Source: Candidatus Rokuibacteriota bacterium (GTDB lineage Bacteria > Methylomirabilota > Methylomirabilia > Rokubacteriales > CSP1-6). From it: 48,993 nt of DNA. The notes under the pieces were generated by a model. The model was not told where the DNA came from. It ran no database searches and was given only the letters and a program-made list of their open reading frames with translations. Location of the stretch: assembly GCA_016209425.1 (NCBI GenBank), contig JACQWA010000257.1, forward strand, positions 1 through 48,993, in the 5' to 3' direction. Made by a program: the position numbers and the translations under genes. Position 1 is the stretch's first letter. Every line of letters starts with the position of its first letter. This document shows positions 381 to 48,993 of the stretch, piece after piece.

Positions 381-430
381 GAAGCACGGAGGGGCCTCGA
401 CGGCCCCCCCGTGAGCCCCCCCGAGAGGTT

Positions 431-449: not shown

Positions 450-560
450 TCGAAGAGCGGTTAGCTCGACACCCCACCAGCGGTAGAAAGACGCGTCCCG
501 TTCCCCCATCCATTGGCCCGCGGGTGTCTTGAATTCCCTGGAAAAATCAGCACTTTTTCC

Positions 561-589
561 TTGACACCTTCTGGAGGGGTGTGTAGGAT
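561..589 (+). promoter_or_regulatory. Sigma-70-like promoter of the dcw cluster (Pmra)
   Basis: TTGACA (561-566), 17-nt spacer, TAGGAT (584-589). It lies in an AT-richer patch about 80 nt upstream of mraZ. Confidence 0.5.
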
Positions 590-597
590 CACCACTC

Positions 598-626
598 AAA
601 GTGGGATGATTTCCCATAAAGTGGGA
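598..626 (+). promoter_or_regulatory. Candidate MraZ operator: direct repeats AAAGTGGGA
   Basis: Identical 9-mers AAAGTGGGA at 598-606 and 618-626 (20-bp period), just downstream of the -10. A degenerate third copy AAAGGGA lies at 639-645. The repeats contain the TGGG / AAAGTG cores reported for MraZ boxes. Confidence 0.45.
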
Positions 627-670
627 ACTGAGCCCATGAAAGGGAAGTGCCATCCCAACTGGCGCCGGCA

Positions 671-1114: not shown

Positions 1115-1119
1115 AACCG

Positions 1120-2037: not shown

Positions 2038-2449
2038 CCAATCGGCCCGCTTGATCCGTGAGCGGGACCGGCGCCGGACGCGCGCCATGGGCGTGACGTT
2101 GCTCGTTTCCGCCTGTCTCGTGGCGGGGGCGCTCGGGATCGTCGCCCTCAAGGTGAACCAGGTGAGGCTCTCGTACCGGTTGGATCAGCTGCGCCTGGTC
2201 CGGAGCGAACTGGAAGAGGGGAACCGCCAGTTGCGGGTGGAGCATGCCACGCTTCGCGCGCTGGCCCGGATCGAGTCAAAGGCGCGGGGTGAGCTGGGCA
2301 TGCTTTCCCCGTCGCGCGATCAGGTGAGGCTGGCGCGGGAGTACGTCCCGGGCTGGGCCCCGGACGGCGTAGGCGTGGGGAGGGGCAGCGCGTCGCTTCA
2401 AACCGCGTGGGAGGAACAGCCGGCTCCCCCGGGCCCCCGGGTCAGGTGA
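2024..2449 (+). CDS. ftsL: Cell division protein FtsL-like (bitopic membrane protein)
   Basis: Basic N-terminus, one TM helix (GVTLLVSACLVAGALGIVALKV), then a coiled-coil-like stretch. Located between rsmH and ftsI. The start is uncertain (ATG 2024 or ATG 2087). Confidence 0.55.
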   Translation: MAPGDQSARLIRERDRRRTRAMGVTLLVSACLVAGALGIVALKVNQVRLSYRLDQLRLVRSELEEGNRQLRVEHATLRALARIESKARGELGMLSPSRDQVRLAREYVPGWAPDGVGVGRGSASLQTAWEEQPAPPGPRVR

Positions 2450-2479
2450 CGTGACGAACACCGGACAGGCTGAGCGGGC

Positions 2480-6012: not shown

Positions 6013-6020
6013 GGAGCGCT

Positions 6021-7409: not shown

Positions 7410-7412
7410 AGG

Positions 7413-8492
7413 ATGCTGTACCACCTCCTCGTGCCGTTCGCCAAGGAGCATATCGTCTTCAACGTCTTCCGGTACATCACCTTCCGGACGGCGATGGCGA
7501 CGGTGACGGCCCTGATCCTGTCCTTCGTTCTCGGACCATGGCTGGTGAAGAAGCTCCGCACGTGGCAGGCCGGCAGGGAGACCCTGCGGGAGGATACCCC
7601 CGAACGCCACCGCGCGAAGGCCGGCACACCGACCATGGGAGGGATCCTGATCCTGGTAGCGATCCTCAGCTCCACCCTGCTGTGGGCAAACTTGAAGAAT
7701 CGCTACGTCTGGATGGTCGTGGTGGTCACGGCGGGGCTGGGGCTCATCGGGCTTCTCGACGATTACCGAAAGCTCCAAACCCGCAAGGGCGTCTCGGCCA
7801 AGGAGAAGTTCGGCGCCCAGCTCCTCCTCGTCGGGTTGCTGCTCCTTTCTCTCTACCTGTTTCCCGTGGACGGCTTTTCGACGCGGCTCGCGATCCCCTT
7901 TTTCAAGGGGTGGCTGGTGAACCTGGGCTGGCTCTGGATTCCCTTCGCCCTCCTGGTGATCGTCGGCGCCTCCAACGCCGTAAACCTGACCGACGGCCTC
8001 GACGGGCTGGCCATCGGTCCCGTCATCATGGCGGGTGGTGCCTTCGCCGTCCTGGCCTACTTGACCGGCAACTTCATCGCCGCCACGTATCTGAGGATCC
8101 CCAACGTCAAGGGCGCGGGGGAGCTGACGATCTTCTGCGGCGCGCTGGTGGGGGCGAGCCTTGGCTTCCTTTGGTTCAACAGCTATCCGGCGCAAGTCTT
8201 CATGGGAGACGTGGGCTCGCTTGCGCTCGGGGGCGCGATCGGGACCTTGGCGGTTCTGACCAAGGCGGAGCTCCTCCTGCCGCTGATCGGCGGGTTGTAT
8301 GTGGTGGAGGCGGGGTCGGTGATCGTTCAGGTGGTGGCGTTCAAGCTCACGGGCAAACGGGTGTTCAGGATGGCGCCCCTGCATCACCACTACGAACTGG
8401 CGGGGTGGGCGGAGCCCAAGATCATCGTGCGCTTTTGGATCGTCTCCTTCCTCCTCGCGCTGTTGGCGCTGACGACCCTGAAGCTGAGGTAG
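7413..8492 (+). CDS. mraY: Phospho-N-acetylmuramoyl-pentapeptide transferase
   Basis: Polytopic membrane protein with KAGTPTMGG, NAVNLTDGLDGLA, GDVGSLALGG and HHHYEL motifs. Confidence 0.95.
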   Translation: MLYHLLVPFAKEHIVFNVFRYITFRTAMATVTALILSFVLGPWLVKKLRTWQAGRETLREDTPERHRAKAGTPTMGGILILVAILSSTLLWANLKNRYVWMVVVVTAGLGLIGLLDDYRKLQTRKGVSAKEKFGAQLLLVGLLLLSLYLFPVDGFSTRLAIPFFKGWLVNLGWLWIPFALLVIVGASNAVNLTDGLDGLAIGPVIMAGGAFAVLAYLTGNFIAATYLRIPNVKGAGELTIFCGALVGASLGFLWFNSYPAQVFMGDVGSLALGGAIGTLAVLTKAELLLPLIGGLYVVEAGSVIVQVVAFKLTGKRVFRMAPLHHHYELAGWAEPKIIVRFWIVSFLLALLALTTLKLR

Positions 8493-32749: not shown

Positions 32750-32825
32750 GAGCCGTTAGCTCAGTCGGGAGAGCACCTGCCTTTTAAGCAGGGGGTCGGT
32801 GGTTCGATCCCACCACGGCTCACCA
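32750..32825 (+). tRNA. tRNA-Lys (anticodon UUU), CCA encoded
   Basis: Manual cloverleaf fold. Acceptor GAGCCGT/ACGGCTC, D-arm GCTC-AGTCGGGA-GAGC, anticodon arm CCTGC-CTTTTAA-GCAGG, T-arm GGTGG-TTCGATC-CCACC. 76 nt. Confidence 0.9.
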
Positions 32826-34758: not shown

Positions 34759-34837
34759 GACCCCGTCGTCTAGCCTGGCCAAGGACGCGACCCTTTCAAG
34801 GTCGAGATCGCGGGTTCGAATCCCGCCGGGGTCACCA
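34759..34837 (+). tRNA. tRNA-Glu (anticodon UUC), CCA encoded
   Basis: Acceptor GACCCCG/CGGGGTC, anticodon arm CGACC-CTTTCAA-GGTCG, T-arm GCGGG-TTCGAAT-CCCGC, long D-loop. 79 nt. Followed by CCCTTTTT. Confidence 0.85.
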
Positions 34838-34909: not shown

Positions 34910-36214
34910 ATGACCACTGGGGGGGAGTGCCAGGACGGGCGAGCCCGGGCCCGTGCGTCGGTTTTGAGGCGGGTAAAGTCGGCTGCGGGGTTCCGGGGAG
35001 CACGATGGGTGTTCTGCGTGATGGTGGCCTCCCTCAACGTGGCGGCCACCCTGGCGAGCGCGCAGACGGTGAAGGATGGCCGGCTCACGGTGAGGCCGGT
35101 GGCGAGCGGGTTGCACGCGCCCACGACCATGGCCTTCATCGGTCCGGACGATATCCTCGTCCTCCAGAAGAACGACGGCCGGGTCCGTCGCATCCTCGGG
35201 GGCGTCCTGCAGCCCGGCGAGGTGCTGGACGTCGCGGTGGACTACGCGGCAGAGCGCGGACTGCTGGGGATCGCGGTCCATCCGCAGTTTCCGACGACGC
35301 CCTTCGTCTATCTCTTCTACACGGAGAGCAGCACGGGCGCCGACACCGAGGGCTTCCCTCCTCCCCTGGGCAATCGCCTCTACCGCTATACCTGGAACGG
35401 AACGGCCCTCATCAATCCGACGCTCCTGCTGGATCTGTCGGTCTCTCCCAACTTCAACCATAACGGGGGCGTTCTCACCTTCGGCCCCGACGGCAAGCTC
35501 TACGCGGTGATCGGGGATCTGGATCACCGCGGCCAGCTGCAGAACCTCCCGGCCGGCCCCCTCCCCGACGACACCGGGGTGATCTTCCGCCTCAACGACG
35601 ACGGCACGATCCCGGGGGATAACCCGTTCTTCTCTCAAGGGGGAAAGCTGGCCCAGTACTACGCCTACGGGATTCGCAACAGCTTCGGTCTGGCGTTCGA
35701 TCCCGTGACCGGCAACCTGTGGGACACCGAGAACGGGGCGGCCACCTATGATGAAATCAACCTGGTGAGGCCAGGCTTTAACAGCGGCTGGATCCAGATC
35801 ATGGGACCCAACGTCCGCGACCCCCAGCGGGTTGACGACCTCTTCCACGTGCCGGGCTCGCACTACGCCGACCCGGCCTTTTCCTGGCGCAGGACCGTGG
35901 CCCCCACGGGCATTGTCTTTCTCGACTCGCCGAGGCTAGGTGAGCAGTACCTGAACGACGCCTTCGTCGGCGATTACGTGACGGGGAGCCTCTACCGCTT
36001 CCGGATGAACGCGACCCGCGACGGCTTCCTCTTCAGGCACCCGGGCCTGGTTGATCGGGTCGCTGACACGCCCGGCGAGCTCAGGGAGCTGATTTTCGGC
36101 ACCGGGTTCGGCGCGATCACCGACCTGGAGGTGGGCCCGGACGGCCTGCTTTATGTCCTCCCCTTTGAGCGGGGAACGCTCTACGTGATCGCGCCCAGAG
36201 CCCCCGACCCATGA
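34910..36214 (+). CDS. PQQ-dependent (soluble) sugar dehydrogenase, beta-propeller, secreted
   Basis: VASGLHAPTTMAF, ERGLLGIAVHPQF, HNGGVLTFGPDGKLY, YAYGIRNSFGLAFDP, DEINLV..GFNSGW. Signal-peptide-like segment WVFCVMVASLNVAATLASAQT. GGAG SD before ATG 34910, but the start is uncertain. Confidence 0.8.
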   Translation: MTTGGECQDGRARARASVLRRVKSAAGFRGARWVFCVMVASLNVAATLASAQTVKDGRLTVRPVASGLHAPTTMAFIGPDDILVLQKNDGRVRRILGGVLQPGEVLDVAVDYAAERGLLGIAVHPQFPTTPFVYLFYTESSTGADTEGFPPPLGNRLYRYTWNGTALINPTLLLDLSVSPNFNHNGGVLTFGPDGKLYAVIGDLDHRGQLQNLPAGPLPDDTGVIFRLNDDGTIPGDNPFFSQGGKLAQYYAYGIRNSFGLAFDPVTGNLWDTENGAATYDEINLVRPGFNSGWIQIMGPNVRDPQRVDDLFHVPGSHYADPAFSWRRTVAPTGIVFLDSPRLGEQYLNDAFVGDYVTGSLYRFRMNATRDGFLFRHPGLVDRVADTPGELRELIFGTGFGAITDLEVGPDGLLYVLPFERGTLYVIAPRAPDP

Positions 36215-36261
36215 CCCACCGTCTGCGCCTCCTTTCCCGGCCTTCTTCCCGGCGGGTGCGC

Positions 36262-36267
36262 TATAAT
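36262..36267 (+). promoter_or_regulatory. Perfect TATAAT -10 hexamer upstream of the small-protein/cNMP/M50-like operon
   Basis: TATAAT lies in an AT-richer patch (ctataataggttttccaattt), 61 nt upstream of ATG 36328. No convincing -35. Confidence 0.3.
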
Positions 36268-36327
36268 AGGTTTTCCAATTTGCGCTTCGCTAGGAGGCTG
36301 TTCGAGCGCGCGCCGAGGGGAGGGCGG

Positions 36328-36549
36328 ATGGCAGGGGAGGGGCTCAAGGAGCTCGTGGGGCGGGCGATGATCGACCCTGACTTCCTTCAGGCCCTCGTGC
36401 GGGACCCCTACACCGTGCTGGCGGACTACGAGCTGAGCGCGGAGGAGCGCACCTCCGTCCTGCAGGCCATCGCCAAGCTCACCCTGACGCCTCGGCCCCA
36501 GCAGGCGCGGGCCTTCCAGACGGCCCTCGTCAAGCGCTTGGCGACGTAG
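36328..36549 (+). CDS. Small helical protein resembling NHLP-clan (nitrile-hydratase-leader-like) peptides; 73 aa
   Basis: MAGEGLKELVGRAMIDPDFLQALVRDPYTVLADYELSAEERTSVLQAI has the xxDPxFxxxLxxDPxxxLxxYxLSxEE pattern I associate with NHLP/Os1348-type leader-like proteins. GAGGGGAGGG SD. Its stop is 4 nt before the next gene. Confidence 0.45.
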   Translation: MAGEGLKELVGRAMIDPDFLQALVRDPYTVLADYELSAEERTSVLQAIAKLTLTPRPQQARAFQTALVKRLAT

Positions 36550-36553
36550 AGGC

Positions 36554-37060
36554 ATGCCGAAAGCCGACGCCGTTGCCTTCCTCCGGTCCGTCTCCGTCTT
36601 CAAGGATCTTGCGGAGCCCCACCTGGTGGCGCTCGCGCTGCGGCTCCAGCCGCGGCGACTCACGAAGGGCGAAGTGCTCTTCCGCGAGGGGGACAAGGGC
36701 GAGGAGCTCTACCTGATCCGCGAGGGGACCGTCGTGGTCTCCAAGCCCGTCATCGGTCGGGTCGAGCAGGTGCTGGCGCGGATGGGCCCCGGGGAGTTTT
36801 TCGGGGAGATGAGCCTCTTCGACCGGGCTCCCCGGTCGGCCACCATTCAGGCTGAAACCGACGCGCTCCTCTTGTGCTTGGATCGGGAAAGCCTCCAGCA
36901 GCTCGTCGAGATCAGCCCCCGCGCTGCGGCGGCCTTTTTCTTCCAGATGGTTCAGGTGTTCGTCTCCCGACTCCGAGAGTCGGGCAACCTCGTCGCGGAG
37001 GTGACGCGGTGGGGCCTGGAGGCCACGGGACTGGACCTGGACAGCAAGTTCCCCGGCTGA
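36554..37060 (+). CDS. Cyclic nucleotide-binding domain protein (stand-alone cNMP domain, no HTH)
   Basis: FKDLAEPHLVALA...GEVLFREGDKGEELYLIREG...GPGEFFGEMSLFDRAPRSATIQA: canonical CAP/PKA-type cNMP-binding beta-barrel with the FGE...RSA phosphate-binding cassette. Confidence 0.8.
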   Translation: MPKADAVAFLRSVSVFKDLAEPHLVALALRLQPRRLTKGEVLFREGDKGEELYLIREGTVVVSKPVIGRVEQVLARMGPGEFFGEMSLFDRAPRSATIQAETDALLLCLDRESLQQLVEISPRAAAAFFFQMVQVFVSRLRESGNLVAEVTRWGLEATGLDLDSKFPG

Positions 37061-37092
37061 CCCGAGGCGGCCGAGCCGAGGAAGGACCGAGT

Positions 37093-38313
37093 GTGGCCCG
37101 ACAGACCAAGATCCAGCTCCTGATCCGCCGCGAGGAAGAAAAGGGGTTCGAGGTCCGGGCCGTCCCGAGCGCCCGGGCCTACCTCCAGTACCGCCCCCAG
37201 CGCATCCCGGCCCCGGCGTGGGAGCTGGCCCAGCTCCCGAAGAGCATCGAGGGTCAGGTCACCTACGTCCTCAAGAACAAGGCCACGGACCGCTACCTCC
37301 TGCTGACCGCGCCCGAGTACTTTCTCTGGGAGCAGATGGACGGCCGGACTTCGCTCCACGAGATGGCGACCGCCTACGTCCTCCGCTACGGCGCCTTCGA
37401 CTTCGACCTGATCCCGAGCCTCATCGCGAAGCTTCAGCGGGCCCAGTTTTTGACCCTCCGCCCCGTGTCCAGGCTGCGCGAGGTGCTGTCACGGCACCAG
37501 AAGAATCTGGGGGCCCGGACGCTGGAGGTGACGCTCAAGGGGCTCGAAAAGCTCACGCTGACGAGCCGGGAGGTGCAGCGGGACTTCGAGCGGGTCTACC
37601 GGTGGGGCGGGCTCCTGCTTTTCACCCTGCCGACCCGCGTCGGGGGGGTTGCCCTGACGGTCCTGGGGGTGATGTCGGCCATCCGCGTCTGGAATGACGC
37701 GGGCGAGATCCTGGCCCCGCTCGCCCGACACCCCATCCTGGCCTTGCTGTCGGTGAAGGCCTTCTTTTGGGTCAGCGTGGCCGCCCACCAGCTCCTCCAC
37801 GGGCTCGCGTGCGTTCACTACGGCCGCCAGGTGCGGGAGTTCGGCTTCGCCCTCCTCCACGGCTTCGTGCCCACGTTCTATGTGGACGTCACCGATATCT
37901 TCATGGCTACCCGGAAGGCCCGCGTGGTGACGGCGCTGGCCGGACCGCTCGTGCATCTCTACCTGGCGAGCCTCTGGTTCTGGGTCGCCACGCAGCTCCC
38001 GCACGGCTTCTTCCAGAGTTTTGCGGCGGCGACCGCGATCTTCCAGATGCAGACCTTCCTGGTGAGCCTGTATCCCTTCTGCTTCCTCGAGATGGATGGC
38101 TATCATATCCTGGTGGACCTCCTCGGGTTCCCGACCCTGAACAAGGATTCCTGGCGGTTCTTTCGCCAGGAGCTGTGGCGGCGGCTGGCGGACCGCAAGA
38201 AGCTCTCCCGCCAGGAGGCCATCTGGGTCGGGTACGTCGTCCTCTCCGCCCTCTCGGTGAGCGCCTTCGTCATCTTCAACGTGTGGGGGCTGGTGCAGCT
38301 CGGCTCCAGTTGA
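37093..38313 (+). CDS. Membrane protein: N-terminal PqqD-like (RRE-like) domain fused to an M50 (site-2-protease)-like domain with HQxxH in place of HExxH
   Basis: PqqD-like segment: YLLLTAPEYFLWEQMDGRTSLHEMATAYVLRYGAFDFDLIPSLIAKLQRAQFL. M50-like segment: AAHQLLHGLACVHYGRQV (HQLLH at 37786-37800), and the downstream LYPFCFLEMDGYHILVDLLG matches the M50 LDG motif. Several TM helices. GTG 37093 with a GAAGGA SD. Confidence 0.6.
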   Translation: MARQTKIQLLIRREEEKGFEVRAVPSARAYLQYRPQRIPAPAWELAQLPKSIEGQVTYVLKNKATDRYLLLTAPEYFLWEQMDGRTSLHEMATAYVLRYGAFDFDLIPSLIAKLQRAQFLTLRPVSRLREVLSRHQKNLGARTLEVTLKGLEKLTLTSREVQRDFERVYRWGGLLLFTLPTRVGGVALTVLGVMSAIRVWNDAGEILAPLARHPILALLSVKAFFWVSVAAHQLLHGLACVHYGRQVREFGFALLHGFVPTFYVDVTDIFMATRKARVVTALAGPLVHLYLASLWFWVATQLPHGFFQSFAAATAIFQMQTFLVSLYPFCFLEMDGYHILVDLLGFPTLNKDSWRFFRQELWRRLADRKKLSRQEAIWVGYVVLSALSVSAFVIFNVWGLVQLGSS

Positions 38314-38342
38314 CGCTCCTTTCCCCTCTTCTCCCGGCCTCC

Positions 38343-38390
38343 CCCCCTCACCCTGCCTCTCCCCACTGGGGAGAGGAGAAGAGGTGAGGG
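38343..38390. repeat. Family B REP-like compound hairpin between convergent genes (possible bidirectional terminator)
   Basis: CCCTCACC(38345-52)...CCTCTCCC(38356-63)-cactg-GGGAGAGG(38369-76)...GGTGAGGG(38383-90). The left arm 20-mer is identical to 29954-29973. Confidence 0.6.
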
Positions 38391-38397
38391 GCGAGGG

Positions 38398-39738
38398 TCA
38401 GTCCGGCAGGTCCCTGCCGGAGATCAACGCGTGGACCAGCCGGTCCAGGAACGACTGAAGGGTGGAAGCCGCCGTGTGGCTCGTGGCGGCGGCCAGCTCC
38501 AAGGCTGCCTGTTGCCCGGACTCGGGGAGGGACGCCAGAGCGGTCTGGGCGTGGCGTCGGACCGCCGGCCCGAGGAGCTTTGCCACCTCCGCCGCAAAGC
38601 GAAGCGCGACGCCCACCCGCTGCCCCAGCGTGTGCTGGGCCTCAAGCAGCCGTCGAAAGAGGTGCGGCAGGCGCAGGCTCACCACCAGGCGGTCCTCGCC
38701 AACCTCCACGAGATCTCCCGTCACCGGCCCCCACTCAAGGGGAAGGCGTTCCACGACCCCCAGGATCGATGGCCGGAGGAGCGGGGCGCTGCCATGGGCG
38801 ATGAGCTCGCCGAGCGTTCTCCGCCATCCCGGCGAGAGGGCCGTCCGTTTCCCTTCCACGGGTGTCATGGGCAGGACGGCCAGGACGTTTCCGCTTCGGT
38901 CGAGGATCAGGTGGTCCTCGATCGCCTCCCCCAGGGCCCAGAGTGAGCAGACGATGCCGTCACCGTCTTCCCGCACGACCCGGGGCTCGTCACGAACCAC
39001 GCCCTGCCAGCGCTGGCGGTAGTACGCCCTCCCTTCGAATACGACCTTCTCGACCCCGTCGCGAAGCTGTACGTACACCCCTGCGCGGGCAAACCGCCTC
39101 TCGTGCGGCGCCGGGCTCCAGTCCAACGGCGATTCGGCGAGATCGCCCGCCAGCATGGCCTCGTTGGACCCCGTGAACTGTTCGAGCGGAGAGGCCGCGG
39201 CCGGATCGTAGCGGAAGGATTCCAGGAGCGCCGTGAAGAGCAGCTCGGTGGCGTAGGGGCCCCGGTAGCGGACGCGGGGCGTCCCCTGGTCTGCGAGCAG
39301 GCAGGCCAGGAAGTTCAGCACCGCGGTCCCGGCCCCGGGAGGAAGCCGCTCCGGCTCGGCCAGCGGCGGGATGAATTTGATCGCCGCATAATCCAGCGAC
39401 TGGAAGAGCGTGATCGGCTCCACGGGACGAAACGGCCGCTCGGGGTTGAGCTGCACGAGCCGGTCGGACCGCCCCCAGATCGGCGATTGTCCGGCTCCGG
39501 GCTCGATGCCGATCCAGCCCCCGTCGGGCGTCCTGACCTTGGCGTGGCGGAGGGCCCCGTCCTCATCCCACTCGGCCGACGTCAGGAGGGTCCCGTGTCG
39601 GTCCACTTCGGAGACGAGGAGGGGCGGTCGTCCCACCCGCCCCGGGATGCGGGTCACGACGGTTCCGTATGGCCTCACCGGCCTCACCGTCGCCTGAGGA
39701 TCTCCCATGAAGAGGATGATACAATGGCGGGGACTCAT
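38398..39738 (-). CDS. Hypothetical protein (about 436-446 aa), the only convincing minus-strand gene in the window
   Basis: Long ORF whose composition is unlike the Arg/Pro-rich antisense artefacts (balanced, many L/E/V/F/W/Y). No overlapping + strand gene with homology. I recognise no motif. Start is ATG 39738 or ATG 39708. Confidence 0.5.
   Translation of the reverse strand: MSPRHCIILFMGDPQATVRPVRPYGTVVTRIPGRVGRPPLLVSEVDRHGTLLTSAEWDEDGALRHAKVRTPDGGWIGIEPGAGQSPIWGRSDRLVQLNPERPFRPVEPITLFQSLDYAAIKFIPPLAEPERLPPGAGTAVLNFLACLLADQGTPRVRYRGPYATELLFTALLESFRYDPAAASPLEQFTGSNEAMLAGDLAESPLDWSPAPHERRFARAGVYVQLRDGVEKVVFEGRAYYRQRWQGVVRDEPRVVREDGDGIVCSLWALGEAIEDHLILDRSGNVLAVLPMTPVEGKRTALSPGWRRTLGELIAHGSAPLLRPSILGVVERLPLEWGPVTGDLVEVGEDRLVVSLRLPHLFRRLLEAQHTLGQRVGVALRFAAEVAKLLGPAVRRHAQTALASLPESGQQAALELAAATSHTAASTLQSFLDRLVHALISGRDLPD
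39717..39725 (+). promoter_or_regulatory. Extended -10 element TGATACAAT upstream of the lipoprotein-amidase-uppS-MFS operon
   Basis: Same 9-mer as 21329-21337. It ends 11 nt before ATG 39737, implying a very short leader. Confidence 0.3.
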
Positions 39739-40147
39739 GCTCGACCGTCGCTCTCGCGTCGGCCTCCTGCTCGTGCTGACCCTCCCGCTGTCGGCGTGCG
39801 CCGGTCAGGGTGGGATCCCGCGCGAGCCCTTCCCGGATGTCCCCCTCCCGGCCTCGTTCATCCCGCACTCCGATCAGTGGGTGCGAATTCGGACGGGGCA
39901 GGCCGACGTCGCCAGGCTGATCTACATGACCGAGCTCGACGTGGAAGGCGCCGCGGCCGCGGTCCGGGACCTCATGGTGAAGAACGGGTGGACCATTCAG
40001 CTCACGAACCGGACGGCCACCCCCGATGGCTACAAGATGATCGTCGTGGATTTCGGGAAGGAGGCGGATACCATCCGGGTCACCGTGCGCGAGGGCGCCT
40101 ATGCCACCCACGTGGAGCTGTCGGTGGCCCGCGTGACACTTCGATGA
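39737..40147 (+). CDS. Putative lipoprotein
   Basis: Signal peptide MLDRRSRVGLLLVLTLPLSAC with lipobox L-S-A-C. ATG 39707 is an alternative start. ATGA overlap with the amidase gene. Confidence 0.55.
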   Translation: MLDRRSRVGLLLVLTLPLSACAGQGGIPREPFPDVPLPASFIPHSDQWVRIRTGQADVARLIYMTELDVEGAAAAVRDLMVKNGWTIQLTNRTATPDGYKMIVVDFGKEADTIRVTVREGAYATHVELSVARVTLR

Positions 40148-41568
40148 CCGTGAACGATCTCTGCTGGCTTCCTGCCACCGAGCTGGTCGCGCGCATCCGG
40201 CGGAAAGAACTCTCGCCGGTGGAGCTCACCGAAACCGTGCTGGCCCGGATCGAGCGGGTGAACCCACGGGTCAATGCCTTCTGCACCATTCCCCACGACC
40301 TTGCGCGCCAGGCCGCGAAGATCGCCGAGGCGGCTGTCTTGCACGGCGAACCGCTCGGCCCCCTTCATGGCGTTCCCCTGTCGGTCAAAGACCTCGTCTT
40401 CACGCGCGGCATCGCCACCACCGGCGGCTCGCGGATCTTCGCCGACTTTGTTCCGGAGGAGGATGCCGTCGCCGTGGAGCGGCTCAAGGCCGCCGGCGCG
40501 GTGATCGTCGGCAAGACCAACACCCCCGAGTTCGGCCACAAGGGGGTGACGGACAACCCGCTCTTCGGAGTGACCCGGAACCCCTGGAGGCTTGACCGCA
40601 CAGCCGGCGGTTCCAGTGGCGGGGCCGGCGCGGCGGTGGCGGCAGGGCTCGCCCCGCTCGCCCTGGGGACGGATGGCGGAGGCTCCATCCGGATCCCGGC
40701 GTCCTTCTGCGGGATTTACGGCTTCAAACCCTCCTTCGGGCGGATTCCGAACGCGCCGGGATTTCCCGGGTGGGAGACGTTCTCCGTGCTCGGCCCCATG
40801 ACCCGCACCGTGCGCGACGCCGCGCTGATGCTGGATGTCCTGGCGGGCCCCGACGACCGCGACCGTCACTCACTCCCCGCGACCGCCGGCTCGTCCCTGG
40901 CGGCGTGCGAGGAACCGATCCCCGGATGGAGCGTGGCCTGGAGCCCCGATCTGGGTTACGCCCGCGTGGACCCCGAGGTTGCCCGGATCTCGGAAGACGC
41001 CGCCGCCGTGTTCGAAGCCCTCGGCTGTCGCGTCGAAACGGTCGCGACGGGCTGGGAGAACCCGGAGGAGATCTTCGCGGTCATGGCCGCCGCCGAGACG
41101 TGCGCGGCCTGGGGGGACCGTCTTCCCGAGTGGGGAGATCGGATGGATCCCACGCTCATTCGTGTCCTGGAGCGCGGGCGCGCGGTGACACTCACGGAGT
41201 ACCTGAAGGCCGCGCAACGTCGCCGAGAGTTCTGGGCCCACGTGCAGGGGTTTCTTAGCCGGTTCGATCTCCTCCTTACCCCGACCGTGGCCGTTGCCCC
41301 CTTCGGCGGAGGGGGCTTCGGACCGCGTGAGATTGCCGGCCAAGGGGTGACGCCCCTCGGCTGGATGCCTTTCACGTATCCGTTCAACCTCACCGGCCAA
41401 CCCGCCGCCACGGTGCCCGCCGGCTTCACCGCCGACGGCCTGCCGGTCGGGCTTCAAATTGTCGGTAAGCGCCACGCCGACCAGGCGGTGCTCGCCGCGT
41501 CGGCTGCGTTCGAGGCGGCGCGCCCCTGGGCTTCTCGGCGACCGCCCCTCGACGGGGCCGGAAACTGA
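40144..41568 (+). CDS. Amidase (amidase-signature family, GatA-like)
   Basis: GPLHGVPLSVKDL...GKTNTPEFG...GGSSGGAGAAVAAGLAPLALGTDGGGSIRIPASFCGIYGFKPSFGRIP, the AS signature with the Ser-cisSer-Lys triad context. The 347-codon upstream extension in the track is rejected. Confidence 0.9.
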   Translation: MTVNDLCWLPATELVARIRRKELSPVELTETVLARIERVNPRVNAFCTIPHDLARQAAKIAEAAVLHGEPLGPLHGVPLSVKDLVFTRGIATTGGSRIFADFVPEEDAVAVERLKAAGAVIVGKTNTPEFGHKGVTDNPLFGVTRNPWRLDRTAGGSSGGAGAAVAAGLAPLALGTDGGGSIRIPASFCGIYGFKPSFGRIPNAPGFPGWETFSVLGPMTRTVRDAALMLDVLAGPDDRDRHSLPATAGSSLAACEEPIPGWSVAWSPDLGYARVDPEVARISEDAAAVFEALGCRVETVATGWENPEEIFAVMAAAETCAAWGDRLPEWGDRMDPTLIRVLERGRAVTLTEYLKAAQRRREFWAHVQGFLSRFDLLLTPTVAVAPFGGGGFGPREIAGQGVTPLGWMPFTYPFNLTGQPAATVPAGFTADGLPVGLQIVGKRHADQAVLAASAAFEAARPWASRRPPLDGAGN

Positions 41569-43507: not shown

Positions 43508-43604
43508 CCGATGCTAACTTGACACGAGTGGAGCCCACCTGCTACAAATAGGGCATCGGGCGATGGAGTTCGCCCCGTAACCGCCCACCCTCACAAGGGC
43601 TGAT

Positions 43605-43645
43605 AACTCCTACTGAAGCGAACCTTCGGTAGGAGTTTTGATTTT
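43605..43645 (+). terminator. Rho-independent terminator
   Basis: AACTCCTACTGAAG-cgaac-CTTCGGTAGGAGTT: a 14-bp stem with one G:U, followed by TTGATTTT. It lies 98 nt after the MFS stop. Confidence 0.6.
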
Positions 43646-43780
43646 CAGGGCTCCTCCGACAGGGCGTTCTGTGTTATCGGCGCGTGAGCAGGCCGTGGGA
43701 TTCAATGCGGGGGATGCAACGATTGGTTTCCCCGTCCGGCGATTGAGGTCAACTATCGCTACCGGGGACGAACGGCCAGG

Positions 43781-43909
43781 ATGATCCGGCACTTCGAACA
43801 CCGGCTCACTGTCTCGCCGGCGCCACCCGCGTTGGCGCCACGGTGGCAGGCGCCGCCGCCGTTTTGGCGCCGCACGTGGCACCGGGTCGTCGCGTGGTGG
43901 TGGATCTGA
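43781..43909 (+). CDS. Candidate 42-aa Trp/Pro-rich micro-protein (speculative)
   Basis: ATG 43781...TGA 43907-09 encodes MIRHFEHRLTVSPAPPALAPRWQAPPPFWRRTWHRVVAWWWI. The stop overlaps ATG 43909 of paralog 1 (TGATG). Third positions are G/C-rich. There is no clear SD. It competes with an N-terminal extension of paralog 1 from GTG 43843. Confidence 0.2.
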   Translation: MIRHFEHRLTVSPAPPALAPRWQAPPPFWRRTWHRVVAWWWI

Positions 43910-44688
43910 TGGATCTCCTCGTCCAAGCTGAGCTCAAGCAGGCCCTGGGGGCGTCCGGCTGCCCCATCTGCCGGGTGGGGGAGGAAGCGGCGTCCCGGTA
44001 TCTCCGATTCGTTCTCCACGAATCGGTCAATGATCCGGCGACACGGCGTCGCCTGGCGTCGTCGTGGGGCTTCTGCCGGCGCCACGGCTGGTACTTCCTG
44101 AGGCTGGAGTGTGTGACGATGCGGGACGGCCTCGGCACCGCCATCCTTGCGGAAGGGCTTCTGAAGATGGCCGAGCAGGTCCTCGACGGCCACCTCGCCG
44201 GTCCACCGGGAGGCGTCCGGAAACAGAGAGCGGCGCGCGCGCGGCTGGAAAAGCTGGTCCGGAGCTTGACCCCGAGAGGACAATGCCCGCCCTGCGTTGT
44301 TCAAGCCGAACACGAGGCCTATGCCCTCGCGGTCCTTGGGACGGTGCTCCAGGTGGAGGCGTGGCGGGAGCGCTTCGCCCTGTCGGATGGCTTTTGCCTG
44401 CGTCACCTGCGGGACGCGCTGGCCACGGAGAAAATCCCGGACCGCCTTCGGTGGATCGTCGAGGACCATCACCGCCGGCTGCGGCGGCTTCTGGCAGATC
44501 TGGAAGAGTATATCCGCAAACACGACTACCGCTTCAGCCAGGAGCCCTACGGGCGAGAGCGCGACGCCGTTGACCGGGCTACCGCGGCCCTGGTCGGGAA
44601 CTGGTTCGACCTGCCCCGCCGGCCCCCGGGGAATCACGGAAGTGAAGCGGAGCGAGTCCAGGCGGAGGAGGGGAAGCATGGTGGCTGA
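43909..44688 (+). CDS. Cys/His-rich protein, paralog 1 of 4 (two CPxC...CxxH modules plus KHDYR helical tail); function unknown
   Basis: GCPICR-34aa-C(F-C-R-R-H), QCPPCV-33aa-C(F-C-L-R-H), then LEEYIRKHDYRFSQEPYGRERDAVDRATAALVG. Clearly homologous to the next three ORFs. The start is ATG 43909 (GGTGGTGGA SD-like) or GTG 43843. Confidence 0.6.
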   Translation: MDLLVQAELKQALGASGCPICRVGEEAASRYLRFVLHESVNDPATRRRLASSWGFCRRHGWYFLRLECVTMRDGLGTAILAEGLLKMAEQVLDGHLAGPPGGVRKQRAARARLEKLVRSLTPRGQCPPCVVQAEHEAYALAVLGTVLQVEAWRERFALSDGFCLRHLRDALATEKIPDRLRWIVEDHHRRLRRLLADLEEYIRKHDYRFSQEPYGRERDAVDRATAALVGNWFDLPRRPPGNHGSEAERVQAEEGKHGG

Positions 44689-44740
44689 GCAGAACGCGGA
44701 GGAATTCGTGAAGAACTACGTCCAGCGGGGCGGTGAGTGA
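44678..44740 (+). CDS. Candidate 20-aa micro-ORF coupling paralogs 1 and 2
   Basis: Strong SD GGAGGAGGGG (44664-73), then ATG 44678. Encodes MVAEQNAEEFVKNYVQRGGE. It overlaps the paralog 1 stop (44686-88), and its TGA (44738-40) overlaps GTG 44737 of paralog 2. Confidence 0.3.
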   Translation: MVAEQNAEEFVKNYVQRGGE

Positions 44741-45801
44741 CCTCCAAGTTCGTCAGCTTCTTCCGCCTGATCGAGGCGTGCGCCCACGAGGGGTGCCCGG
44801 TCTGCCGCTGCCTCAGGGAGGACGCGGTCCAATACCTGGACGCCCTGCTCTACGAGCGGGTCAATGATCCCGGGACCCGTGCCGCCCTTCGCGCCTCCGG
44901 GGGGTTCTGCAACTGGCACGCCTGGCTGACCCGCGACATCCTCCACAGCGGCCTGGGGACCGGCATCATCTCCGAGGATCTTCTGGGCGGTGCCCTGGGT
45001 CGGCTGCGGCGCCAGCTGGTCAGGGTCCAGCGGGGGCCACTCAGCGTAGGGTGGCTGCATCGTCTCTTCGGTCGCTTTCCCCGGCTCTCGTTTCTCACGC
45101 ATTGGCGACGCAAGGCGATCTGTCCCGCCTGTCGGAGCGCGCGCGAGGCCGAGGCGAGCTACCTCCTGGCCGTCCTGGAGTTCACCGGGGATCCCCAGTT
45201 CGACCGGGCGTTCGAGCGTTCTCCCGGTCTCTGTCTCCCTCACGTGCTCCGCCTCGTGGCCCTCGGGCCCAGCCACGCGAGGCTGGAAACGGTCCTCGAG
45301 CGGGTGGCGACCAAATGGCAGCGCCTTCAGGCCGAGCTGAAGGGCTTCGTGGCCAAGCACGACTACCGCACGACGGAGCCATTCACCGACGACGAGGCGA
45401 AGTCCTGGACCCTGGCCATCGAGCTCCTCGCGGGCGCCCCCGGCATCTTCGGGAACGAACTTCACGGCGACGGCTCCCCGGCCGCCGAGCCCCTGATCGG
45501 GCCGCAAGTCCTTCTCGATCGCTCGCCCGTCTCCCAATCGGATCCCGAGACGCTCCGGTTCGAGAAGGAGAAGCTGGAACTCCGGGTCAAGGAGCTCACG
45601 GATCAGTTCAGCGAGGTTTCCAGCCGGGCCGCCGCGCTCCATTACCGGCTCTGGGAGGTGCTGGAGGACCGCAAGGCCCTCGAGATGAACCTCTCGGGCG
45701 AACAGGCCTCGTCCCGCCTCTGGGAGCGGAAGGTCGAAGAGCTCCAGAAGCAGATCGACCGGTTGAGGGAGCAGGCGTCACGCGGACGGGGGCCCGAGTG
45801 A
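44737..45801 (+). CDS. Cys/His-rich protein, paralog 2 of 4 (two modules, tail, C-terminal coiled coil); function unknown
   Basis: GCPVCR...GGFCNWH; ICPACR...PGLCLPH; LKGFVAKHDYRTTEPFTDDEAKSWTLAIELLAG; then the heptad-rich stretch LRFEKEKLELRVKELTDQF...KVEELQKQIDRLREQ. An in-frame TGA at 44734-36 fixes GTG 44737 as the earliest start. Confidence 0.65.
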   Translation: MTSKFVSFFRLIEACAHEGCPVCRCLREDAVQYLDALLYERVNDPGTRAALRASGGFCNWHAWLTRDILHSGLGTGIISEDLLGGALGRLRRQLVRVQRGPLSVGWLHRLFGRFPRLSFLTHWRRKAICPACRSAREAEASYLLAVLEFTGDPQFDRAFERSPGLCLPHVLRLVALGPSHARLETVLERVATKWQRLQAELKGFVAKHDYRTTEPFTDDEAKSWTLAIELLAGAPGIFGNELHGDGSPAAEPLIGPQVLLDRSPVSQSDPETLRFEKEKLELRVKELTDQFSEVSSRAAALHYRLWEVLEDRKALEMNLSGEQASSRLWERKVEELQKQIDRLREQASRGRGPE

Positions 45802-46913
45802 GGGGGAAGAGAATCTCCAGGGGACATCAGGACGCCCAGCTCTTGGCCGCCCTCGACGAAGAAGGCTGCCCGGTCTGTCACCTAATCGCGGGCAGCGACG
45901 ACCACTACCTCTTCTGGTTCTTCAACGAGAACTACTATGAGCCGTTCAGCCTCGACGGCCTGACGCGCTCGCTCGGCTTCTGCCTGGCTCATGGGGCGCG
46001 CCTGACGCGAAGCAGTGTGGGGGCCTACCAGCTGGCGGCGGTTCATGAAGTGCTGGTCCGCCGCATCCGCGAGATGCTGCTCCACCATCCGGCCGCCCAG
46101 CGCCGAGGTGAGGGCCCCCGACCGGCGCTGGCCACCTATGACGTCTGCCCGGCGTGTCAGGACCGGGAGAGCCAGGCCGCGCGGACCGCCTTCTGGTTGG
46201 CCGCCCTGCTCGAGGAGCCTGGGGGGGCCGACCGCTACGCACGCCCCGGGATCCTCTGCTTCCCTCATCTCCGAGCCGTCTTGCCGCGGGTCTCTCAGGT
46301 GACGTTCGAGCGCCTCCTGGCCGTTCACGAGTCGGCCATGGCGTGCGCCCTGCAGTCGCTGCGGGAGTTGACGATCGAGCTTGGCCCGATCGCCTCCGAG
46401 GGGCGGCAGGATCTCGTGAAGGCGCTGCTGCCGTCGCTTCGTCTCGCCCTGGGGCATGACAAGGGGAACGGCGCCTACCCCGTACCGCACGAGTCCGGGG
46501 TCTCCCCACGAAGCAGAGACCCGGTCGGTGACTTCCTCGAAGCGCTGGGCCGGGGTGAGGCGTGCCCGGTCTGTCTCCCCGTCTGCGAGCGGCTGGCCGT
46601 CGCCAGAGACCGGGCCCTCTCCCTTCTCTTCGGCCTCCTCGAAGGCCGCCAGCACCGGGCCACCCTGGAGAGCGGGTACGGGCTCTGCCTCAAGCACTTC
46701 TCTCGCACCCTGGCTTTTCACCCAGCGCCCGCGATCCGCTCAGCCCTCGTGGAGGTTGAGGCCGCCAAGCTCGCCCGCCTCCATTGGGAGCTTGAGGAGT
46801 CCTTGCGCAAGGTCGCCTGGAACGTCCGGCCTGAGCCGAAGGGCACAGAGCAAACGGCCTGGAGGCGAGCGGTGCTGAGATTCTCGGGCTCCCTCAAGCA
46901 ACGGGCGGGTTGA
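45798..46913 (+). CDS. Cys/His-rich protein, paralog 3 of 4 (three modules); function unknown
   Basis: GCPVCH...LGFCLAH; VCPACQ...ILCFPH; ACPVCLPVC...YGLCLKH; tail LEESLRKVAWNVRPEPKGTEQTAWRRAVLRFSG. GTG 45798 overlaps the paralog 2 TGA (GTGA). The upstream 249 codons of the track ORF run out of frame over paralog 2. Confidence 0.65.
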   Translation: MRGKRISRGHQDAQLLAALDEEGCPVCHLIAGSDDHYLFWFFNENYYEPFSLDGLTRSLGFCLAHGARLTRSSVGAYQLAAVHEVLVRRIREMLLHHPAAQRRGEGPRPALATYDVCPACQDRESQAARTAFWLAALLEEPGGADRYARPGILCFPHLRAVLPRVSQVTFERLLAVHESAMACALQSLRELTIELGPIASEGRQDLVKALLPSLRLALGHDKGNGAYPVPHESGVSPRSRDPVGDFLEALGRGEACPVCLPVCERLAVARDRALSLLFGLLEGRQHRATLESGYGLCLKHFSRTLAFHPAPAIRSALVEVEAAKLARLHWELEESLRKVAWNVRPEPKGTEQTAWRRAVLRFSGSLKQRAG

Positions 46914-46914
46914 C

Positions 46915-47615
46915 ATGGCTCCCGCCCCCGTCCGAGCCAGGCCGTTCCACGCGGGGACCGCGGAGAGTTTGCGGCTCTCGGACGGGGAGATCCATTTCCT
47001 CTGGTGGTTCATCCAGGGGAGCATCATGGAGCCTGACATTCGCCGTGGGGCTTCTGCGAGCGGCACGCTTGGGGCGCCCTCGCCGTCGAGGCGGGGTTCC
47101 GTCATGGCTTCCTGCACGGCCCTGCCGTGCTCTACCAGGACCTCATGGAGCGCGCCCTCCGCGCCTTCGCGCTCCGTGGGCCGGGGCAGGTCAGGCGTCT
47201 GGCGCGGAGGCTCCAGGCGACCGACCCGTGCCATCTGTGCGACCTGAACCTGGGTCAGGTGGCAGGGGCTCACGTCCGCGCGGAGCGCATCGCCGAGGGG
47301 CGAGATCCGAGGGCTCTGCGTGCGTTCGCGGAGCACACGCGGCGGTACTGGTGGAGGGCTGTGTGTGGGCGGTGTCTCGGCGACGGATCGACGCCACGAT
47401 GCCGCCCTCATCTGCTCGAGGAAGCCTCGCGCGCGGGACCGATTGACCTTGGGGCGCAGCGCGCTCAGGTCAAGTACATCGTCGAGCACCTGACGGTCTA
47501 TCACCAGTCGTTCGTCTGGGGATACCATGGCACCGAGACCGACGAGGACCGGGCGGCCCTGATCAGCGCCGTGTGCTGGTGCAGTGGCTGGCGGGCCTGG
47601 ATCCCGTTTGTTTGA
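46915..47615 (+). pseudogene. Cys/His-rich paralog 4 of 4, frame-disrupted and degenerate (or split into two ORFs)
   Basis: Frame 1 from ATG 46915 reads ...LSDGEIHFLWWFIQGSIMEPDIRR (first CPxC lost). Homology then continues in another frame from about 47037: HSPWGFCERHAWG...DPCHLCD...PRCRPHLL...YHQSFVWGYHGTETDEDRAALISAV. A 1-nt frame change is needed near 47037-47046. Confidence 0.5.
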
Positions 47616-47812
47616 TGATCTTCCTCGTTGAGTTCCTGGAGGACGATGGAGCGCTCTCTCAACGGCCCCCGCGTGTCGACGTGGAAGCCGACGAGCGTCG
47701 GGTCGTTGAATGGCTGGCCGCCCGCGGGCGTCAGGCGTATGTCCGGCAACTCTTCACGCCGTACGGCTTCCTCTGGGTTCCGCAGGGGCGGTCTCCGCGC
47801 GAGGGGCTTTGA
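47615..47812 (+). CDS. Hypothetical 65-aa protein coupled to paralog 4 and to the USP-CBS gene
   Basis: ATG 47615 overlaps the paralog 4 TGA (TGATG). Encodes MIFLVEFLEDDGALSQRPPRVDVEADERRVVEWLAARGRQAYVRQLFTPYGFLWVPQGRSPREGL. The stop is 2 nt before ATG 47815. G/C-rich third positions. Confidence 0.35.
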   Translation: MIFLVEFLEDDGALSQRPPRVDVEADERRVVEWLAARGRQAYVRQLFTPYGFLWVPQGRSPREGL

Positions 47813-47814
47813 AA

Positions 47815-48993
47815 ATGTTCAGGCGAATCCTGGTGGCGTATGACGGCTCGGCCGGTGCCCGGACGGCGCTCAGGATTGGGATTGACCTCGCCCGGCAGCT
47901 GGGCGCGGAGCTCTCCAGCGTCTCGGTCGAGGAGCCGCTGCCACGGTACGCGGCGACGATCGGCGAGGTGGAGGCCGCCAAGGAGGAAATCGACGAGCAC
48001 TTCCACAAGCTGACCAAGGAGGCGCGGGACCTGGCGGCGCTGGCGGGCGGCGTCGAGCTCGAGACGGAGGTCCGCCGGGGGCACGAGGTAGAGATGATCC
48101 TCGAGGTCGCCCGCGGAGGGAAGTTCGACCTGCTCCTGATCGGCTATCAGGGGCACAGTCGCATCTTCGAGCGGATGATGGGAAGCACGGCGCTCAACGT
48201 CGCGCGGCTGACCCCGTGCTCGGTCCTGATCGCGCGGCCCCGCGAGGCGTCAGGGGAAGGCGTGGGGGCTTTCAAGCGCATCCTGGTCGGCCTGGACGGC
48301 TCGCCGCTGGGGCGTCTGGCGTTCCAGGCCGCGCTGGACCTGGCCCGGCTCTCCGGCGGGACAGTCATAGGGGCGACGGTCCGGGAGGTCTCGCCGCTGG
48401 CGAGATCTGAGGTCCCCGACGAGACCTACGTCCACCAGCTCCAGACGGCCGCTACCGAGCACGCCCGCGCCGCGGGTGTCGTGTTCGACGGGATCATCCG
48501 GACCGGCCACGCCGCGCAGGCCCTCTGTGATCAGGCGCGAGACGGCCGAGCCGATCTGATCGTCCTAGGGGCGACCGGGCTCGAGCACCCCTGGAGCGCC
48601 ACGCTGGGAGGCACAGCGACGCGCGTCGCCAGCGAGGCGCCCTGCTCCATCCTCCTCGTCCGGTTCCCCCGAGCAGTCCTCCACGTCCGGGACGTGATGG
48701 TGCGGGGCGTCTCTTCGGTGACGCTCGACACGCCGCTCGCCGAGGTGGTCGAGCTGCTCCTCCGGCGGAACGTCAAGGCCCTGCCGGTGGTCGATGCCCG
48801 TCAGCACGTCGTCGGCATCATCACGGGCGGCGACCTGCTCGATCGCACGGACCTCGAGTTGCGCCTGAGCATCCAGCGGGAGCTGCATGCCGACACCTTG
48901 CGGGAACGGCTTCGCGGCCTCGCGCGGAGCCCAAAGGCTGCCCGCGACGTGATGACGCGCCCCGTTCACACGGTGGAGGCCGACGTGGATCTC
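47815..48993 (+). CDS. Universal stress protein (two tandem Usp domains) fused to a CBS pair; 3' end outside window
   Basis: Not in the supplied ORF track because no stop falls inside the window. I translated it by hand: 393 codons, open to nt 48993. Usp domain 1: MFRRILVAYDGS...LLLIGYQGHS...GSTALNVARLTPCSVLIAR. Usp domain 2: FKRILVGLDGSP...DLIVLGATG...GGTATRVASEAPCSILLVR. CBS: VRDVMVRGVSSVTLDTPLAEVVELLLRRNVKALPVVD...GIITGGDLL, then ARDVMTRPVHTVE. GAGGGG SD. Confidence 0.8.
   Translation, partial: MFRRILVAYDGSAGARTALRIGIDLARQLGAELSSVSVEEPLPRYAATIGEVEAAKEEIDEHFHKLTKEARDLAALAGGVELETEVRRGHEVEMILEVARGGKFDLLLIGYQGHSRIFERMMGSTALNVARLTPCSVLIARPREASGEGVGAFKRILVGLDGSPLGRLAFQAALDLARLSGGTVIGATVREVSPLARSEVPDETYVHQLQTAATEHARAAGVVFDGIIRTGHAAQALCDQARDGRADLIVLGATGLEHPWSATLGGTATRVASEAPCSILLVRFPRAVLHVRDVMVRGVSSVTLDTPLAEVVELLLRRNVKALPVVDARQHVVGIITGGDLLDRTDLELRLSIQRELHADTLRERLRGLARSPKAARDVMTRPVHTVEADVDL

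Follow-up and report, generated by a model that had tools for sequence, protein, structure and literature searches.

Known bacterial defences against fluoride consist mainly of two exporters and extra copies of the enzymes that fluoride inhibits, and regulons under fluoride riboswitches were reportedly described by Baker and colleagues in 2012. Here we analyse a 48,993-nt stretch of the Candidatus Rokuibacteriota contig JACQWA010000257.1, hereafter the window, in which a fluoride riboswitch stands ahead of a plus-strand operon of four paralogous genes, labelled P1–P4, of the Pfam family PF19538 (DUF6062), with a remnant of a pup gene between P1 and P2. Taken together, the locus is likely to be a fluoride-inducible operon of DUF6062 zinc proteins. 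The closest described systems are the regulons of the crcB motif, the members of which include crcB/Fluc, CLC-F, enolase, pyrophosphatase, Na+/H+ antiporters, USP, MutS-like proteins and formate hydrogen lyase (Weinberg 2010; PMC2864571). The window shares with them the same aptamer and the ON logic of a terminator that overlaps it (PMC2864571), and related loci share the companion genes, but the first genes here are DUF6062 paralogs, accompanied in this clade by pup, and the window holds no exporter.

Six comparison loci have the same layout as the window (L024, L004, L022, L001, L107 and L108), and L107 is the closest relative, with 82–85% DNA identity over the part from P2 to the USP gene. 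Starting from the 5′ end, a promoter-like element at 43519–43548 (plus strand) can be read from the sequence immediately 5′ of the riboswitch, with a −35 hexamer TTGACA (43519–43524), an 18-nt spacer and a −10 hexamer TACAAA (43543–43548). Alignment shows that both hexamers are kept in L024 and in both copies at L022; a consensus promoter scanner did not report the element, because the last base of the −10 hexamer is an A. The aptamer at 43550–43619 (plus strand) matches the crcB motif (RF01734) in an Rfam cmscan search with 55.1 bits against a gathering score of 34 bits (E = 1.4e-14) and covers model positions 1–64 of 64; orthologous aptamers lie ahead of P1 in L024, L004, L022, L001 and L003. 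A terminator scan places the expression platform at 43605–43647 (plus strand), where an intrinsic terminator is formed by a 14-bp stem (43605–43637) followed by TTGATTTT, with a fold energy of −25.3 kcal/mol (z = −3.5). The terminator takes its 5′ arm from the 3′ end of the aptamer, over which it extends by 15 nt, so fluoride binding should block termination. The same overlap occurs in the relatives and in 37 metagenome leaders, and terminators that overlap the aptamer are known for crcB RNAs (PMC2864571). Aptamer and terminator together should work as an ON switch, and we regard it as highly probable that fluoride switches the operon on. In the mechanism that we propose, a sigma-70-type promoter would drive the crcB-type riboswitch and, with fluoride bound, the terminator could not form, which would let transcription read through into P1, the pup remnant, P2, P3, P4, a 65-aa gene and a USP-USP-CBS gene.

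In the window, none of promoter, aptamer and terminator is damaged, and they score as high as those of the relatives; the non-coding segment 43540–43665 is more conserved than the genes in blastn comparisons with the relatives. Between the terminator and P1 runs a long GC-rich leader of approximately 260 nt (43648–43908, plus strand), and P1 starts 290 nt past the aptamer on the same strand. The leader is partly conserved with L107 (72%) and is absent from L024 and L004, the leaders of which are 46–76 nt long. A structured RNA within 43660–43908 was considered and rejected, as the segment folds no better than shuffled sequence, and a snoRNA match on the minus strand (43812–43875) is spurious. 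A second fluoride aptamer is present on the contig of L001 (L001:37–107), ahead of genes at 222–7955 that encode Mrp, complex I and formate-hydrogen-lyase-like subunits (NADHdh, Proton_antipo_M, Complex1_49kDa, Fer4, Oxidored_q6).

The association of riboswitch and gene family extends well past the window. Among 17 species-representative DUF6062 loci picked by protein motif alone, seven have RF01734 at the gathering score within 10 kb (L005, L007, L009, L013, L017, L018 and L019) and three more have a sub-threshold match, immediately upstream of a DUF6062 gene in L006 and L012 and on the opposite strand in L020; several of the remaining loci are on contigs too short for judgement. The lineages in which DUF6062 genes lie behind a fluoride riboswitch are NC10/Methylomirabilota, Chloroflexota, Actinomycetes, Clostridia and a Cupriavidus plasmid. 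A further 80 metagenome loci, picked by the peptide SDGLCLPH[LF], were scanned with our own covariance model, trained on Rfam-verified aptamers from DUF6062 loci. An aptamer match was found in 55 of the 80, and in 48 of the 71 loci that have enough upstream sequence for assessment the aptamer precedes, in the same orientation, the gene that opens the DUF6062 array: 21 of these 48 aptamers are within 250 nt of the matched gene, and 22 are approximately 750–1,000 nt upstream with another DUF6062 paralog in between. The weaker aptamers retain GGCGAUG...CUCGCC and CUGAUAGCCUCUAC, their pseudoknot covaries (GAGGC/GCCUC, GGAGU/ACUCC and GGCAU/AUGCC), and a terminator that incorporates the aptamer 3′ end comes after each of them; they plainly read as the fluoride aptamer with an extra hairpin. 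Behind fluoride riboswitches, DUF6062 genes typically form arrays of one to five paralogs or fused double units, and tandem paralog arrays are the normal state of the family, not a peculiarity of the window. Judged from the sequences of these loci, DUF6062 belongs to the core of the fluoride regulon in several phyla and usually sits close to the promoter.

The variant with the extra hairpin is common and is found at L033:5883–5964, L031:2728–2809, L085:1531–1609 and about 30 more loci. The hairpin lies between stem P1 of the aptamer (not to be confused with protein P1) and its second stem, and the variant has a covarying pseudoknot GAGGCU/AGCCUC. As most of these aptamers fall below the Rfam gathering threshold, standard annotation under-counts fluoride riboswitches.

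The window has a GC content of 68%, and P1, P2 and P3 are plus-strand open reading frames (ORFs). All three match PF19538 above its gathering threshold of 27 bits and present all eight Cys/His columns of the family. P1 (43909–44688, plus strand, 259 aa) is intact and scores 75.6 bits (E = 5e-21); P2 (44737–45801, plus strand, 354 aa) is likewise intact, scores 47.5 bits (E = 2e-12) and ends in a coiled coil of approximately 90 aa; P3 (45798–46913, plus strand), originally a double unit of four modules and here reduced to 371 aa, scores 30.2 bits (E = 4e-7). The initial annotation of this region, made from the sequence alone, had described four tandem homologous ORFs and hinted at a DUF-type family. 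The hint was right, the family being DUF6062, and the homology stands for P1, P2 and P3 (BLASTP E = 7e-24 for P1–P2, 1e-9 for P1–P3 and 7e-8 for P2–P3), but P4 is frameshifted and P3 is missing a module. The hand-counted spacing, CPxC-34-CxxH followed by CPxC-33-CxxH, is exact for P1, P2 and the first unit of P3, and in P1 it defines two Cys3His sites, C18/C21/C56/H59 and C126/C129/C163/H166. The coiled coil of P2, also noted at that stage, corresponds to weak Pfam matches to coiled-coil families at residues 270–347. The two-site pattern of eight Cys/His residues is incomplete in P4 (site A) and in modules 3 and 4 of the window P3.

Modules A and B arose long ago by duplication within the protein (hhalign probability 97%, E = 8e-11). 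In a set of 90 diverse representatives with 29–48% identity to P1, the eight Cys/His columns show 99–100% conservation, as the initial annotation had asked of its proposed ligands. The stretch that it had written as YL..hL.E.VNDP..R and the helical tail that it had pointed out are likewise family-wide, as E.VND...R and EYIRKHDYRF...E: residues E38, V40, D42, R46, K204, E212 and E217, which make up these two segments, are conserved across the family, and the charged ones among them (E38, D42, R46, K204, E212 and E217), which lie outside the metal sites, are 90–99% conserved. Orthologues of P1 are full length and 64–69% identical, those of P2 measure 354–356 aa, and the ratio of non-synonymous to synonymous substitution (dN/dS) against orthologues is 0.2–0.38 over all genes and 0.2–0.3 for P1 and P2, in line with the purifying selection that had been proposed as a check. 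An exhaustive profile search gathers 5,192 clusters at 50% identity (E ≤ 1e-3), some of them single units of approximately 240 aa, many others fused pairs of units with approximately 470–500 aa.

Searches for similarity to characterised proteins gave little. NCBIfam has no family for P1–P4, look-ups of the exact P1 and P2 sequences matched no record, and a search of PDB sequences with the family profile found nothing below E = 0.01 except coiled-coil noise. PADLOC returned no defence-system match for P1–P3 or for P4 and P5 of L024, and an anti-phage reading of DUF6062 was dropped for want of such a match. A context of radical-SAM enzymes or of ribosomally synthesised and post-translationally modified peptides (RiPPs) was also rejected, given that no such enzymes adjoin P1–P4; the initial annotation had rightly seen no radical SAM, YcaO or protease partner next to the operon.

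The AlphaFold2 model of P1, built with 41 homologues, is all-alpha, with twelve helices, a predicted local distance difference test score (pLDDT) of 88 and a predicted template modelling score (pTM) of 0.81. Each Cys pair and each Cys/His pair in the model sits at a helix N-terminus. The model of a four-module P3 orthologue (pLDDT 83, pTM 0.83) forms one body, which suggests that two DUF6062 units pack together; with the frequent fusions in the family, this lends support to hetero-oligomers of the paralogs, which seem plausible. Foldseek searches with the P1 and double-unit models against PDB and BFVD gave best E values of 0.17–1 and TM scores below 0.2. P1–P4 would be cytoplasmic, all-alpha DUF6062 proteins that arose by internal duplication, in each half of which an invariant CPxC...CxxH site would clamp two helix N-termini. 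On ligand conservation and the modelled positions, structural Zn(Cys3His) is the assignment of the Cys3His sites that we somewhat favour. Zn-type ligands bridge helices in other all-alpha domains as well, namely the ZAS anti-sigma domains (HxxxCxxC) and the TAZ domains (HCCC). The likeness is one of analogy only: there is no sequence or fold match to ZAS or TAZ, and DUF6062 alone has this ligand order and the 33/34-residue spacing.

Between P1 and P2, which are 48 nt apart, translation reveals a pup remnant of 20 codons (MVAEQNAEEFVKNYVQRGGE; 44678–44740, plus strand). The initial annotation was right in spirit in suggesting a stress-linked role for the operon but overlooked both this remnant and the fluoride riboswitch. 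The remnant retains a start codon that overlaps the P1 stop, a Shine–Dalgarno sequence and a C-terminal GGE, and only the last 19 residues of Pup are left; DNA alignment shows an in-frame loss of 44 codons (132 nt). Its Pfam Pup match, 32.1 bits over profile positions 51–69, is accordingly not that of a full-length Pup. At the same position, L001, L004, L022, L024, L107 and L108 encode an intact 64-aa Pup, for example MADQERKPVRRQKPQEEEAASNPRVAKKGRELKKGLDKVLDEIDTVLEQNAEEFVKNYVQRGGE, which matches PF05639 with E = 1e-20 (69–75 bits) and TIGR03687 with 59.6 bits against a cut-off of 41.45. These proteins resemble Pup of the actinobacterial Pup-proteasome system above curated thresholds and in the end of their 64 residues, ...LDEID.VLE.NAEEFVK.YVQRGG[QE]. 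As opposed to that system, in which the gene lies between dop and prcB, pup is found here between DUF6062 genes behind a fluoride riboswitch. A literature search on UBact gave passing mentions only. Dop–Pup crystallises with MgFx between ADP and the Pup C-terminus, in stable complexes (PMC8599861), and the assembly of Clp ATPases is inhibited by fluoride (PMC12700350), so a fluoride-induced extra pup would fit the logic of a regulon that provides more of what fluoride blocks. In the clade of the window, an inducible copy of pup, translationally coupled to P1, could plausibly make up for Pup molecules held on Dop/PafA by magnesium-fluoride. A general partnership of Pup with DUF6062 was rejected, as the two occur together in one clade only.

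The copy of the operon in the window is partly decayed. P3 has lost 321 nt in frame, with a junction at approximately 46577 according to blastn breakpoints; the deletion brings the module-3 CPVC up against module 4, and the result is the hybrid CPVCLPVC, which the initial annotation had taken for a third module. All 20 orthologues of P3 have four CPxC...CxxH modules and approximately 478 aa, and the window is the only one of the 21 sequences without some 108 of these residues. P4 (46915–47615, plus strand), a divergent DUF6062-like paralog, is a pseudogene here, as seen from translations and DNA alignment: its 701 nt are read in two frames, frame 1 from 46915 to approximately 47045 for the first 43–44 residues and frame 0 from 47037 to 47615. 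Alignment with L024, L004 and L107 traces the frameshift to a clean 16-nt deletion at approximately 47043/47044, between ...ATTCGC and CGTGGGG..., which led us to reject a one-base homopolymer error in the G-run at 47046–47049; programmed frameshifting was also rejected, as there is no slippery site and the orthologues are in one frame. Intact orthologues of P4 have 234–240 aa, and the CPxC of site A is missing there too. As opposed to P1–P3, P4 and its orthologues fall below the PF19538 threshold, and neither half of P4 matches Pfam; its membership is visible with our own DUF6062 hidden Markov model (E = 1e-6) and in BLASTP to P1 (E = 1.7e-5).

The genes of the operon follow each other at overlapping or 1–2-nt junctions. 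The initial annotation had correctly spotted a GTGA and a TGATG junction but misplaced them: the GTG start of P2 overlaps the stop of the pup remnant, not that of P1, and TGATG is where P4 meets a small conserved gene for a 65-aa protein (47615–47812, plus strand), the start of which overlaps the P4 stop. This gene, which has no Pfam match, has a 66-aa orthologue at the same position in L107 (L107:4699–4899), and its protein follows the pattern MIFLV...VVEWLA..G..AYVR.LF.PYGFLWV. The USP-USP-CBS gene (47815–48993, plus strand; Usp E = 8e-52 in two copies, CBS E = 7.5e-13) starts 2 nt after the small gene and extends past the window end, and is probably the last operon gene visible in the window. 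Its L107 orthologue has 447 aa. The locus of L107 is undamaged throughout, with P1, Pup (64 aa), P2 (354 aa), P3 (478 aa), P4 (234 aa), the 66-aa gene and USP/CBS, so the lesions of pup, P3 and P4 are derived in the lineage of the window. The two loci differ in identity along their length, with 72% over the P1 segment (window 43703–44703) and 82–85% over 44687–48855 (P2–P4 and USP); the lower value for the P1–pup segment suggests recombination or faster evolution.

With three derived lesions (132 nt from pup, 321 nt from P3 and the 16-nt frameshift of P4) and a dN of P4 that is raised on the branch of the window, the operon might be read as a non-functional relic to which the riboswitch is attached incidentally. 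We consider this improbable: nothing in the regulatory region (promoter, aptamer, terminator) is damaged and its scores equal those of the relatives, neither P1 nor P2 is shortened and both show dN/dS of 0.2–0.3, and of the three deletions only that in P4 breaks the frame. The decay, moreover, touches the copy in the window and not the family-wide association of DUF6062 with the riboswitch.

What the proteins do may be approached through their neighbours. Enolase, pyrophosphatase, CrcB, CLC, Na+/H+ antiporter, USP and MutS-like (MutS_V) proteins are encoded next to DUF6062 genes, and these neighbours match the published fluoride regulon (PMC2864571, PMC11139923). The neighbourhood survey that the initial annotation had called for shows tandem arrays to be common and USP and CBS genes to recur in fluoride-riboswitch loci. 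A dynamin-like GTPase is present in L004, L007, L009, L012, L013, L017, L018, L019, L024 and L108, often translationally coupled to DUF6062; with PADLOC models, these GTPases show generic dynamin similarity to LeoA only. The arrangement recalls the bacterial dynamin-like operons DynA, LeoABC and IniABC, in which a stress-induced dynamin GTPase likewise stands beside small helical partners, but here the partners are Zn-type DUF6062 proteins and the trigger would be fluoride, and the window has lost the GTPase or never had it.

One such locus is a 20-kb fluoride island on plasmid pTMH.W2_3 of Cupriavidus sp. TMH.W2 (L018:1–20432, plasmid positions 73189–93620), a cultured host. It has six aptamers at the Rfam threshold and one weaker match, and the genes under them encode a MutS-like ATPase, two dynamin-like GTPases, enolase, CLC-DUF190-pyrophosphatase, a Na+/H+ exchanger and a double DUF6062 protein, the gene of which is followed by a 158-aa gene and then by a dynamin-like GTPase gene. 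ATPases with a MutS_V domain only (L022:11470–14639, L018:462–2105 and L105:3395–6591) are usually paired in fluoride loci. Their similarity to KamC, which acts as reactivase ATPase for lysine 5,6-aminomutase, is weak and stays under the cut-off (E = 1e-11 to 3e-23); it hints at a chaperone or reactivase role and not at DNA repair.

The likeliest of several weak options for DUF6062, offered tentatively, is a non-enzymatic scaffold or adaptor that works with co-regulated nucleoside triphosphatases (NTPases). The paralogs would form a hetero-oligomeric, Zn-stabilised assembly with a dynamin-like GTPase or MutS-like ATPases, and scaffold and NTPases together would protect or restore a fluoride-sensitive process. 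A number of observations weigh against this reading or against the fluoride operon as a whole. No fluoride exporter, enolase or pyrophosphatase gene was found in the 49-kb window. The link to the NTPases is one of gene adjacency alone, and many loci are without either NTPase. In roughly one quarter to one third of the DUF6062 loci no riboswitch is seen, and of 20 metagenome leaders that were re-tested only five reach the Rfam gathering score, the others depending on our own model. Neither PafA, Dop, Mpa/ARC nor 20S proteasome genes were found in the 49-kb window, no dop, pafA, mpa or prcAB is among the called genes at L001, L004, L022, L024, L107 and L108, and Pup accompanies DUF6062 in a single clade, so the Pup link may be incidental. 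Finally, E38, N41, D42, R46, K204, D206, E212 and E217 could equally form a catalytic or ligand-binding site.

This last point leads to an alternative, rather unlikely in our view, in which the DUF6062 proteins are enzymes or binders of fluoride or metal-fluoride that act through E-x-V-N-D...R and R-K-H-D-Y-R...E...E, with Cys3His only holding the fold; they might, for example, release or sequester Mg-fluoride from trapped phosphoryl-transfer enzymes. The 90–99% conservation of charged residues outside the metal sites agrees with such a role, as does the position of DUF6062, usually the first gene after the riboswitch, where direct resistance functions are usually placed, and so does the weak resemblance of the MutS_V neighbours to the KamC reactivase ATPase. 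Yet no likeness to an enzyme family or fold came up in Pfam, NCBIfam, PDB profile and Foldseek searches, the presence of degenerate paralogs such as P4 in the arrays speaks for scaffolding and not for catalysis, and the conserved charges may be mere salt bridges. A second alternative, of similarly low probability, makes the DUF6062 proteins metal buffers or metallochaperones for Zn or Fe with exchangeable sites, induced because fluoride disturbs metal homeostasis, with the GTPase driving delivery. Eight invariant soft-metal ligands per unit, adding up to as many as approximately 30 per operon, the frequent GTPase neighbour and the reported perturbation of metal-ion homeostasis by fluoride (PMC12700350) are in keeping with this proposal. 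However, the ligands are modelled at helix N-termini deep in a confidently packed bundle, as would be typical of structural sites, the neighbouring GTPases are dynamin-like and not COG0523 or SIMIBI metallochaperone GTPases, and on general chemistry fluoride binds hard cations and not thiolate-bound Zn. The least probable option, a redox or Fe-S sensor or an anti-sigma-like regulator that widens the fluoride response, draws on CPxC as a classic redox-active motif, on the general ability of Cys3His to ligate labile Fe-S clusters and on the two-component and sigma-54 regulators downstream in L001 and L024, but DUF6062 has no DNA-binding or sigma-binding domain and no adjoining sigma factor, arrays of two to five paralogs would be unusual for a regulator, and the spacing and the predicted helix-capping geometry favour mononuclear structural sites.

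The remainder of the window is chromosomal housekeeping, with a dcw cluster (FtsL, PBP, Mur ligases, FtsW, FtsA and FtsZ) and further genes that include serA, hisS, purA, uppS and a gene for a major facilitator superfamily transporter. Genes for tRNA-Lys(UUU) at 32750–32825 and tRNA-Glu(UUC) at 34759–34837 lie on either side of an ORF for a type II/IV secretion ATPase (T2SSE/MshEN). Within 36169–38946, a small ORF resembles the Frankia_peptide family of RiPP precursors but, at 33.6 bits, stays under the cut-off of 48. Next come two ORFs without a Pfam match (36856–38313 and 38314–38946) and then a long ORF with a C-terminal amidase domain (38947–41568), and together these may form a RiPP-like cluster.

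Both the riboswitch class and the Pfam family were known before; what appears to be undescribed is that DUF6062 is probably part of the fluoride stress response. Our literature search turned up no mention of DUF6062 or PF19538 and no link of either to fluoride, the gene tables of Baker et al. (2012), which may list the family, being outside that search; within the same limits, no link of dynamin-like GTPases or of Pup to fluoride riboswitches was found. If the association holds, DUF6062, with more than 5,000 clusters, would be a major missing component of the bacterial fluoride response, and the riboswitch gives a family of uncharacterised function a concrete and testable phenotype, fluoride tolerance, for which the cultured Cupriavidus strain is a place to test. 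A more speculative and on balance doubtful extension is that DUF6062, dynamin-like GTPases and MutS-like ATPases make up a widespread machine for intracellular fluoride tolerance, as opposed to export, that has been wired to Pup in one clade; such a machine might, for example, release or replace phosphoryl-transfer enzymes trapped by magnesium-fluoride. The co-regulation of dynamin-like GTPases, MutS-like ATPases and Pup would in any case point to intracellular damage control as a side of the fluoride response, which may bear on the engineering of microbes for organofluorine chemistry.

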